The notes: generated from the letters alone by a model not told the origin. 31,184 nt of DNA from Candidatus Micrarchaeia archaeon (GCA_038874595.1 JAVZCB010000003.1:123342-154525); one strand, 5' to 3'. Counted from the first letter of the stretch, positions 4,024-5,583 are shown. Program-made: numbers and translations.

Positions 4024-5433
4024 ATGAATATAAGCAAGATTGGTAATTTTTCTGAGTGGTACCAGACAGTATTGTTTGAGGCCGGTATCGTTGATATTAG
4101 GTATCCCATAAAAGGTATGCCTGTATATCTCCCATGGGGGTTCCAGTCATTAGACCATATGTTTGCACTTCTTGAGAAATTATTAAATGAAACCGGGCAC
4201 GAGAAGATGCTATTCCCGGTGGCGATACCGGAGAGCACATTCTCAAAAGAGACTGAGCACATTAAAGGGTTTGAGGATGAAGTGCTCTGGGTAACGCACG
4301 GCGGCCTCACACCGCTGGAGGAACGGTTGGTGCTCCGCCCTACTTCTGAGACTGCAATGTACCCGATGTTTGCGTTATGGGCGCGCTCGCACGCAGACCT
4401 CCCAATCAAGATATACCAGACAACCTCGGTTTACAGGCACGAGACGAAGGCCACAAGGCCTTTAATGCGCGGGCGCGAGGTATACTGGAACGAGGCGCAC
4501 ACTTCACACGCCACGTTTGAGGATGCAGAGCGCAACGTTGAAGATGCGATTCGAATTTACACGGAGTTTTACAAGAAGTTATGTATCCCATTTCTTGTAA
4601 TAAAGCGCCCTGAGTTTGATAAGTTTGCAGGTGCAGTATATACGTATGCATTTGATACGGTAATGCCGGATGGCCGGACTTTACAGATAGCCACGGCGCA
4701 CAATTTAGGTGACAATTTCGCAAAAGCGTACAATGTTAAATACTCCACGGAGACAGGCGAGCAGAGGTATGCATACCAGACCTCGTATGGTATAAGCATG
4801 CGCGCGCTTGCAGCTGTTATAAGCGTGCACGGTGATGAGCGCGGGCTCAAGCTGCCTTTTGATATTGCGCCTATCCAGATAGTTTTTGTACCGATTTATT
4901 CAAAGGATAACAATGCATTGGTCGATTCAAAACTCAAGCCAGTATACGAATCGCTCCGCACGCTGTACAGGTGCAGGTATGACGATTCAGATAAGCGTCC
5001 CGGTGATAAGTATTACTACTGGGAGCTGAAAGGTGTACCGTTAAGGGTTGAGGCTGGGATGCGCGACCTCTCGGAGAGTAAAGTTACAGTGGTTGACAGG
5101 AACGGCATAAAAAGGCAGGTTCCTGTAAGCAAGCTAATCGATGAGTTGCCAAAGATAATAGAAGAGTACCATAAGAAGCTGTACGCGGATGCGAAGGCAT
5201 TCTTTGATAGTAACCAACACAGTGCAAACACCGTGAAAGAGCTCAGGGAGATGATGGATGAGCACCGCGGTATGATTCGTGTAGGCTGGTGCGGCAGTAT
5301 AGAATGCGCAGAGGAATTGGACAAGCTCGAAGTTGGCAAAATCCTCGGCTATGAGAAAGGGAACAGCAAAAAGCGCAAATGCATCATCTGCGGTCGGGAC
5401 GGCGATGAGGTAATAATGTCAAAGGCCTACTGA
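4024..5433 (+). CDS. proS: Prolyl-tRNA synthetase (archaeal/eukaryotic type)
   Basis: LRPTSET, YRHETKATRPLMRGREVYWNEAHT, QTSYGIS, Zn-binding Cys residues and C-terminal KAY. Confidence 0.98.
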   Translation: MNISKIGNFSEWYQTVLFEAGIVDIRYPIKGMPVYLPWGFQSLDHMFALLEKLLNETGHEKMLFPVAIPESTFSKETEHIKGFEDEVLWVTHGGLTPLEERLVLRPTSETAMYPMFALWARSHADLPIKIYQTTSVYRHETKATRPLMRGREVYWNEAHTSHATFEDAERNVEDAIRIYTEFYKKLCIPFLVIKRPEFDKFAGAVYTYAFDTVMPDGRTLQIATAHNLGDNFAKAYNVKYSTETGEQRYAYQTSYGISMRALAAVISVHGDERGLKLPFDIAPIQIVFVPIYSKDNNALVDSKLKPVYESLRTLYRCRYDDSDKRPGDKYYYWELKGVPLRVEAGMRDLSESKVTVVDRNGIKRQVPVSKLIDELPKIIEEYHKKLYADAKAFFDSNQHSANTVKELREMMDEHRGMIRVGWCGSIECAEELDKLEVGKILGYEKGNSKKRKCIICGRDGDEVIMSKAY

Positions 5434-5583
5434 TTATGATATGAGAAGTAGCAGGATTACTGCAAACTCAGGCAAGCCGGACAATTCAAGGCCTACTGAT
5501 TATGGTATGAGTGTAACTGCACGGCCACGCGTGGCCTGATGCCGAGCTGCTAAGAGGCCTACCGATTATGGTATGAGTGTAAC
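5422..5583 (+). repeat. CRISPR-like mini-array: 3 x 30-bp repeat with 2 unique 36-bp spacers; first repeat contains the proS stop codon
   Basis: Repeats at 5422, 5488 and 5554 (exact 66-bp period), consensus AAGGCCTACTGATTATGGTATGAGTGTAAC. Spacers 5452-5487 and 5518-5553 are unrelated to each other. Confidence 0.85.

Follow-up and report, generated by a model that had tools for sequence, protein, structure and literature searches.

Why does the end of an essential gene show the geometry of a CRISPR array, and is the structure a working array, a trace of mobile elements or something else? The question is raised by the 3' end of proS in the window analysed here, i.e., a stretch of 31,184 nt (GCA_038874595.1, JAVZCB010000003.1:123342-154525) on contig 3 of a hot-spring archaeon of the Micrarchaeia/Bilamarchaeaceae, whose genome comprises 0.918 Mb in 7 contigs (93.5% complete) and whose ProRS relatives carry the names Micrarchaeota or Micrarchaeia. 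The gene (4024-5433, + strand, ORF call) encodes a prolyl-tRNA synthetase of 469 aa with matches to Pfam tRNA-synt_2b, HGTP_anticodon and ProRS-C_1, and its last codons belong to the first of three repeats. A preliminary description of the locus left two readings side by side: an orphan array co-transcribed with proS, or the scars of repeated integration at this site. The reading favoured here is that the mini-array is probably a neo-CRISPR scar, left when Cas1-Cas2 twice integrated off target at the tail of proS, and probably inert. Its geometry, the native repeat, the self-derived insert 2, the I-B genes and array of the genome and the likeness of the junctions are observed directly; Cas1-Cas2 as the agent, the order of the events and the lack of function are what we infer from them.

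Geometry and reality of the mini-array

The mini-array consists of three copies of 28-30 nt whose starts lie 66 and 66 nt apart, with two inserts between them that are unrelated to each other. Its CRISPR-sense strand, the - strand, is antisense to proS. From the gene outwards, its parts are repeat copy 1 (R1, 5422-5451, leader-distal), insert 1 (5452-5487, 36 nt), repeat copy 2 (R2, 5488-5517, delimited by repeat comparison), insert 2 (5518-5554, 37 nt, base 5555 being ambiguous) and repeat copy 3 (R3, 5555-5583, or 5554-5583 when parsed by the period), which is leader-proximal and whose - strand begins GTTACACTCATACC. Beyond R3 there is a leader-like flank (5584-5625), whose - strand ends in ACCT and which contains a T-run (5602-5607) that is likely the proS terminator. 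This flank reaches to the 3' end of a tRNA-Arg(GCG) gene (5626-5904, - strand), read by eye, which on the CRISPR-sense strand precedes the mini-array and has an intron of ~205 nt at position 37/38. ARAGORN and Rfam both missed the tRNA gene and reported nothing on the region of the mini-array, for which Tandem Repeats Finder gave no report either, as expected because the spacers are unrelated.

The period of exactly 66 bp with two unrelated spacers, as first described, is upheld by repeat comparison, by shuffling and by a second assembly. R2 and R3 have a single mismatch over their 29 common nt, and two matches of that quality were obtained in none of 100 shuffles of the window. R1 had been said to hold the end of proS with its TGA, to match R2 in its 5' half and to diverge in its 3' half, and this is what the alignment gives: its first 12 nt are the last 12 nt of proS (AAG GCC TAC TGA, the final three codons plus the stop), there is one mismatch to R2 in the first 24 nt, and then five of the final six nt differ (AAGTAG vs TGTAAC, + strand). 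That R3 differs only in its 5' half holds as well, with one point to be refined. In the 30-nt parse there are indeed two differences from R2, G5554 and C5563, the latter being a point change (strain L030 has T there); G5554, however, is reassigned, since the identity of insert 2 to its source (see below) implies that this insert spans 5518-5554, or extends to 5555, and G5554 is thus part of the insert and not of R3. A duplication of 28-29 nt plus an insert of 37-38 nt is hence the better parse of the unit. Insert 1 measures 37-38 nt if positions 5488-5489 are counted, and 42-44 nt if the six divergent nt arrived with it.

Is the structure real? An independent assembly, L030 (GCA_038891275.1), whose ProRS is identical, contains all five parts of the mini-array, and a Logan contig (L031, run SRR27730023) contains R1, insert 1 and R2 and stops short within insert 2, which is to be expected because the sequence of insert 2 occurs twice in the genome. 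With the mini-array in three independent assemblies (in part in the Logan contig), an assembly artefact is rejected. Two further candidates were also discarded: a tandem duplication followed by divergence, because the inserts are unrelated and yet the repeats are 97% alike, and a C/D-box sRNA, because there are no boxes.

Native origin of the repeat

Where does the repeat come from? In the sister species G002/L032 (ProRS 86% identical) and L033 (79%), proS, its stop codon and the tRNA gene follow one another with the array absent, and the 3' end of the same intron-bearing tRNA lies at most ~10 nt past the proS stop. The lack of the array in two sister species indicates that the mini-array repeat is native proS-tail DNA, and the repeat carries the conserved C-terminal codons of proS (KAY-stop). 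The comparison with the rest of the genome advised in the preliminary description yielded no further copy of the repeat, and there was no match to it in metagenome contigs.

The preliminary description likened the pattern of the repeats to attL/attR hybrids. Such a pattern would arise if mobile elements had more than once integrated site-specifically at proS/tRNA-Arg and been excised again. The mini-array does adjoin a tRNA gene, a common att target, and R1 looks like a hybrid of two halves. Nonetheless, there is no integrase or element remnant nearby (the neighbours are Sua5, thrC and the tRNA), the repeats do not overlap the tRNA gene as an att site overlaps its target, and the inserts are not element-sized, with only 36-38 nt and one of them originating from a housekeeping-type gene. 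Scars of this kind are extremely improbable here. What stands of the earlier proposal is repeated integration at this site; what was integrated were spacers, most likely by Cas1-Cas2, and not att elements.

The resident type I-B system

The genome encodes a CRISPR-Cas system whose parts are split between contigs. A k-mer scan found the canonical array at the end of contig 6 (C6:76862-77817), with 14 repeats of 31 nt, all identical, and spacers 35-40 nt long, and the end of contig 1 (C1:217857-225051) holds cas6-cas8-cas7-cas5-cas3-cas4 in type I-B order, where the cas8 position is occupied by a 629-aa gene with no Pfam match and cas4 is cut by the contig end. Array and operon each run off a contig end, and neither cas1 nor cas2 was found in this assembly. 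Outside it, a 3.7-kb contig whose Cas4 is 90% identical carries cas3-cas4-cas1-cas2, a 103-nt leader and an array with the identical canonical repeat, and a Candidatus Bilamarchaeaceae contig (DRTY-6 bin) has the same leader and repeat, its terminal repeat being decayed in the 3' half. Both outside loci present the order cas4-cas1-cas2-leader-array, which establishes the sense orientation of the canonical repeat as GTTAGAATCGAGCCTATTGTAGGATTGAAAC. It is only in these identical-repeat loci that cas1-cas2 is seen behind cas4; based on them and on the gene order, cas1-cas2 and the leader of the present genome likely lie in the gap between contigs 1 and 6. Exact look-ups with the Cas3 and Cas7 of this genome retrieved no other contig. 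As a separate observation, the last spacer of the contig 6 array repeats the third (77028-77065 = 77770-77807), which hints at a loop introduced by the assembly within the canonical array.

Could the mini-array work with this system? Its geometry is truly that of CRISPR, the genome encodes a type I-B effector, two strains retain the array and, between the proS stop and the T-run, it is probably transcribed. Either together with proS or via read-through from tRNA-Arg, it would then give rise to crRNAs defending the cell or regulating a metallophosphoesterase gene, to which insert 2 has a perfect match (see below), much as CreR/CreTA-type or self-regulatory arrays do. The repeat itself speaks against it. 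Only 12 of 31 positions are identical between the mini repeat and the resident one; as RNA, the mini repeat reaches 0 and -2.9 kcal/mol (two strands), no better than shuffled controls, whereas the canonical repeat forms a hairpin of -5 kcal/mol preceding its ATTGAAAC handle, and both this handle and a Cas6-type hairpin are absent from the mini repeat. Canonical arrays are characterized by three or more near-identical repeats of 23-47 nt with unique spacers of similar length, by a repeat family that the resident Cas6/Cascade recognises (through its hairpin and its handle of 8 nt) and that recurs elsewhere, and by spacers matching mobile elements. The first of these features is present at proS, with three copies; the other two are not, for the repeat is confined to this site, is missing from the sister species and does not lie beside cas genes, while insert 1 has no match and insert 2 matches an own gene. 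Besides, a full match would entail autoimmunity if the type I system is active, and known regulatory mini-arrays match promoters partially, rather than coding regions with full identity. A working array is therefore very unlikely, and the functional orphan array co-transcribed with proS that was initially considered finds no support in a unique, antisense proS-tail repeat that lacks hairpin and handle and is followed by a self-copied insert.

A mimic of the leader-repeat junction

The part of the mini-array that does resemble the resident system is its edge. With a slash marking the junction, the real leader-repeat junction reads GCCT/GTTAGAATC (in its longer form ...TTTGCCT/GTTAGAATCGAGCC), and the tRNA-side edge of the mini-array, on the - strand, reads ACCT/GTTACACTC (...GGGACCT/GTTACACTCATACC), in such a way that 10 of 12 positions agree. 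The repeat end GTAAC (GTTAC on the reverse strand), in which a resemblance to CRISPR termini had been noticed beforehand, thus finds its counterpart in the start of the resident I-B repeat (GTTAGA...) and in its leader junction. The motif CCTGTTA.A.TC, picked only once the junction match had been seen, has 5 occurrences in 1.84 Mb (both strands), one of them exactly at the array edge. An unbiased test set in advance, comprising 7 leader and 14 repeat bases with a slack of +-4 nt, gave 12 of 21 matches at offset 0, a value that ~1.5% of random positions reach (p about 0.015). The locus thereby shows the likeness to a leader junction expected of off-target Cas1-Cas2 integration. Furthermore, the duplicated stretch has G as its first base on both strands.

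Sources of the inserts

Insert 2 (5518-5554) is identical over 37 of 37 nt to a stretch of the same genome on contig 2 (C2:195733-195769), on the opposite strand; base 5555 also agrees with this source, but is common to the other repeats as well. The stretch encodes residues ~130-142 of a metallophosphoesterase of 241 aa, within its Pfam Metallophos match (residues 19-153), and the gene is full-length in 7 of the 8 genomes of the family. Being located inside a Pfam-matched and family-conserved gene, this stretch is the source and the array is the recipient. The spacer search proposed in the preliminary description was hence fruitful for insert 2, although with a source in the organism's own genome, and not for insert 1, which has no match in its own genome and for which viral contigs, 400 genomes of the class, metagenome and genome contigs, phages and plasmids gave nothing beyond chance.

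Other ectopic units (see below) also contain copies of the organism's own DNA. The insert of a unit at C5:7925 is 32/35 identical to a place on contig 4. The insert of a further unit, upstream of a ferredoxin gene (C1:28537-28642), agrees at 31/33 positions with C2:191897-191929, which is just 3.8 kb away from where insert 2 originated. Of the three self sources known, two hence fall in one small region of contig 2, where fragment supply or primed uptake could have a hot spot. No convincing motif is common to the flanks of these three protospacers and no shared PAM is evident; three canonical spacers, compared with viral contigs in order to learn the PAM, gave no match. None of the 34 canonical spacers of the resident repeat family matches the own genome, compared with at least three self-derived inserts at ectopic sites, a contrast that fits with only the canonical crRNAs being active.

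Off-target spacer integration as the proposed mechanism

How might the mini-array have arisen? According to the favoured reading, the cell's own type I-B integrase (Cas1-Cas2, probably joined by Cas4) would have treated the DNA behind proS as the first repeat of an array, and would have done so twice. The choice of the site would be due to the - strand, where ACCT/GTTACACTC resembles GCCT/GTTAGAATC. In each event, staggered cuts ~28-30 bp apart would be followed by the joining of a fragment of 36-38 nt and by gap repair, doubling the 28-30 bp in between. The first event would have brought in insert 1, leaving R1 as the oldest copy, and the second, at the copy adjoining the junction mimic, would have brought in insert 2 from the metallophosphoesterase gene, R3 being the newest copy. 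The empty, pre-insertion allele of the proS tail would read ...TATGAGTGTAAC-AGGTCCC once. Since the duplication starts within the last codons of proS, the end of the gene remains intact in R1. In turn, the absence of the hairpin and of the ATTGAAAC handle that Cas6/Cascade use would explain why a perfect self-matching insert is tolerated.

Several measurements agree with these steps. The inserts, with 36-38 nt, fall within the 34-40 nt of the 34 canonical spacers, and the duplicated native DNA, with 28-30 nt, is close to the 31 nt of the resident repeat, with the caveat that the last 6 nt of R1 differ. The polarity is also that of an array: R2 and R3, the pair most alike, adjoin the junction mimic and enclose the insert that has kept full identity to its source, and divergence is greatest in the distal R1. 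A clean duplication would not lead one to expect the abrupt 6-nt divergence at the end of R1 that faces the insert. Here, the last repeat bases may have been replaced by an untrimmed prespacer end during gap repair; a duplication of 24 nt with an insert of 42-44 nt is another possibility, and so is a later local change.

Other units in the genome and in its relatives

The proS locus is not alone. Non-tandem direct repeats of 21-36 nt occur at ~14 loci with a spacing of 63-75 nt, in comparison with a single one at 45-62 nt, and about a dozen other repeat-insert-repeat units can be recognised in the genome, several of them with a repeat of 23-26 nt and an insert of 41-42 nt that add up to the usual period. 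The duplications extend over 23-36 nt, a spread that is wider than a strict ruler predicts. Four loci start with GTT, as the real repeat does, and the one at C1:28537 starts with GTTAGA on the sense strand; apart from this common GTT start, the likeness of the other units to the leader junction is not significant. In the window there is a second mini-array at the tail of thrC (6646-6879, - strand), formed by four copies beginning GTTCAAGG (FKDKY-stop) and three inserts of 35, 36 and 38 nt. Its distal copy is the most decayed, its newest duplication extends 7 nt further upstream and its copy B has a sharp change that resembles the divergent end of R1; the thrC tail of the sister species L032 is a single copy, with no array.

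In 9 of 12 units, one copy lies on or abuts the stop codon that ends an ORF with a length of 90 aa or more. This placement would reflect survivorship in a compact genome: a duplication starting in the last codons leaves the gene whole, and insertions in genes or promoters would be lost, resulting in an excess at stop codons. As for relatives, no such unit was detected outside the array in 400 kb of a Cas1-positive one (G013, which has a 40-repeat array), nor in 489 kb of two Cas1-negative ones. The scars are hence specific to this lineage, and so small a comparison gives no link to Cas1.

Do these units need Cas proteins at all? A Cas-independent process of the lineage, such as a template switch at gene ends in the course of replication or break repair, would copy ~35 nt from elsewhere and resume synthesis ~30 nt upstream, producing a duplication and a templated insert at once. 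The genome is unusually rich in gene-tail duplications and in tRNA introns built from repeats, and the anchoring at stop codons, a duplication length that varies while the period holds at 63-75 nt, and relatives devoid of units irrespective of Cas1 would all suit such a process. It leaves unexplained, however, the junction mimic at the proS unit and the GTT starts, and the anchoring at stop codons can be put down to selection in a compact genome. Moreover, we know of no repair process that yields inserts of resident-spacer length together with duplications of approximately resident-repeat length. All in all, a process without Cas proteins is unlikely. A broader view, which goes further than off-target integration at proS and is decidedly improbable, would be that in this lineage of the Micrarchaeia the I-B adaptation machinery, or an unknown process with a like footprint, inserts spacer-sized DNA at many gene ends, followed by array-like growth; the units might then be arrays caught at birth, some of them perhaps with RNAs acting on own genes, for example that of the metallophosphoesterase.

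Relation to known systems

The proS locus probably represents a further, rather clean archaeal case of neo-CRISPR-like scars. Most demonstrations of off-target integration come, to our knowledge, from engineered E. coli and from in vitro work, and there are few clean natural cases. Nivala, Shipman and Church (2018, Nat Microbiol 3:310) reportedly described off-target spacer integration, under the name of neo-CRISPR, for the type I-E system of E. coli, and are said to have named Yersinia pestis and Sulfolobus islandicus as putative examples from nature. The proS unit is alike in its spacer-length insert, in the repeat-length duplication of ordinary genomic DNA, in its junction-like site and in the possible self origin of inserts. 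Unlike the E. coli system, it is natural, its host is an uncultivated DPANN archaeon whose system is of type I-B, and it comprises two successive insertions with array-like polarity. The unit extends over the stop of an essential gene, is one of about a dozen in a genome of 0.92 Mb, and has one repeat end that is sharply divergent.

In PMC11788318 and PMC6698737, the study of Nivala et al. 2018 is cited for non-canonical spacer integration. The Cas1-Cas2 of Pyrococcus furiosus integrates in vitro at repeat-like non-CRISPR sites, with paired cuts ~30 bp apart at G or C (PMC6698737). This system shares with the one discussed here its archaeal nature, a related repeat type (GTT...ATTGAAAG), off-target sites with shared bases and the preference for a G start. 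The differences are that its products were obtained in vitro on plasmids, whereas those at proS are fixed in a wild genome and have more variable duplication lengths.

A third comparison concerns CreTA/CreR-type mini-arrays, virus-borne mini-arrays and solitary repeat units, which also have two to three repeats and one to two inserts, some of them self-matching. CreTA/CreR-type and viral mini-arrays are composed of degenerate real CRISPR repeats, are situated in viruses or within or next to cas loci, and have partial matches. In contrast, the proS unit has the proS tail as its repeat, matches a coding region completely and lies on a contig other than that of the cas genes, and is thus not a regulatory mini-array of the CreTA/CreR type.

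The locus is useful in that it combines two events at one site, a junction mimic, one known self source and a canonical array without self spacers. As such, it documents in nature the requirements of the integrase in vivo, the naive sampling of self DNA and a possible route to new arrays. It also holds a warning for annotators: CRISPR finders may label such scars as orphan arrays, and a self-targeting spacer within one of them need not imply autoimmunity or regulation.

Further repeats in the window and around tRNA genes

Other repeats were encountered along the way. The intron of tRNA-Arg(GCG) consists of repeated modules, with direct repeats of 42 and 27 nt at a spacing of 127-129 nt, and in strain L030 it is shorter by one unit of 127 nt. 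Tandem repeats of 42-72 nt are also present in or right after tRNA genes at C2:669-815, C2:11957-12099, C1:143671-143908 and C3:148962-149150, where they represent repeat-built introns and repeated 3' ends. In the window, a unit of 65 nt that starts in a gene tail is present in four to five copies, in tandem, at positions 25200-25451; the copies have like interiors, which points to tandem duplication, and differ in this from proS and thrC with their unique inserts. Finally, a coding repeat with a period of 99 nt occupies positions 30517-31184 and runs past the window end, and fits with repeats of 33 residues such as ankyrin.
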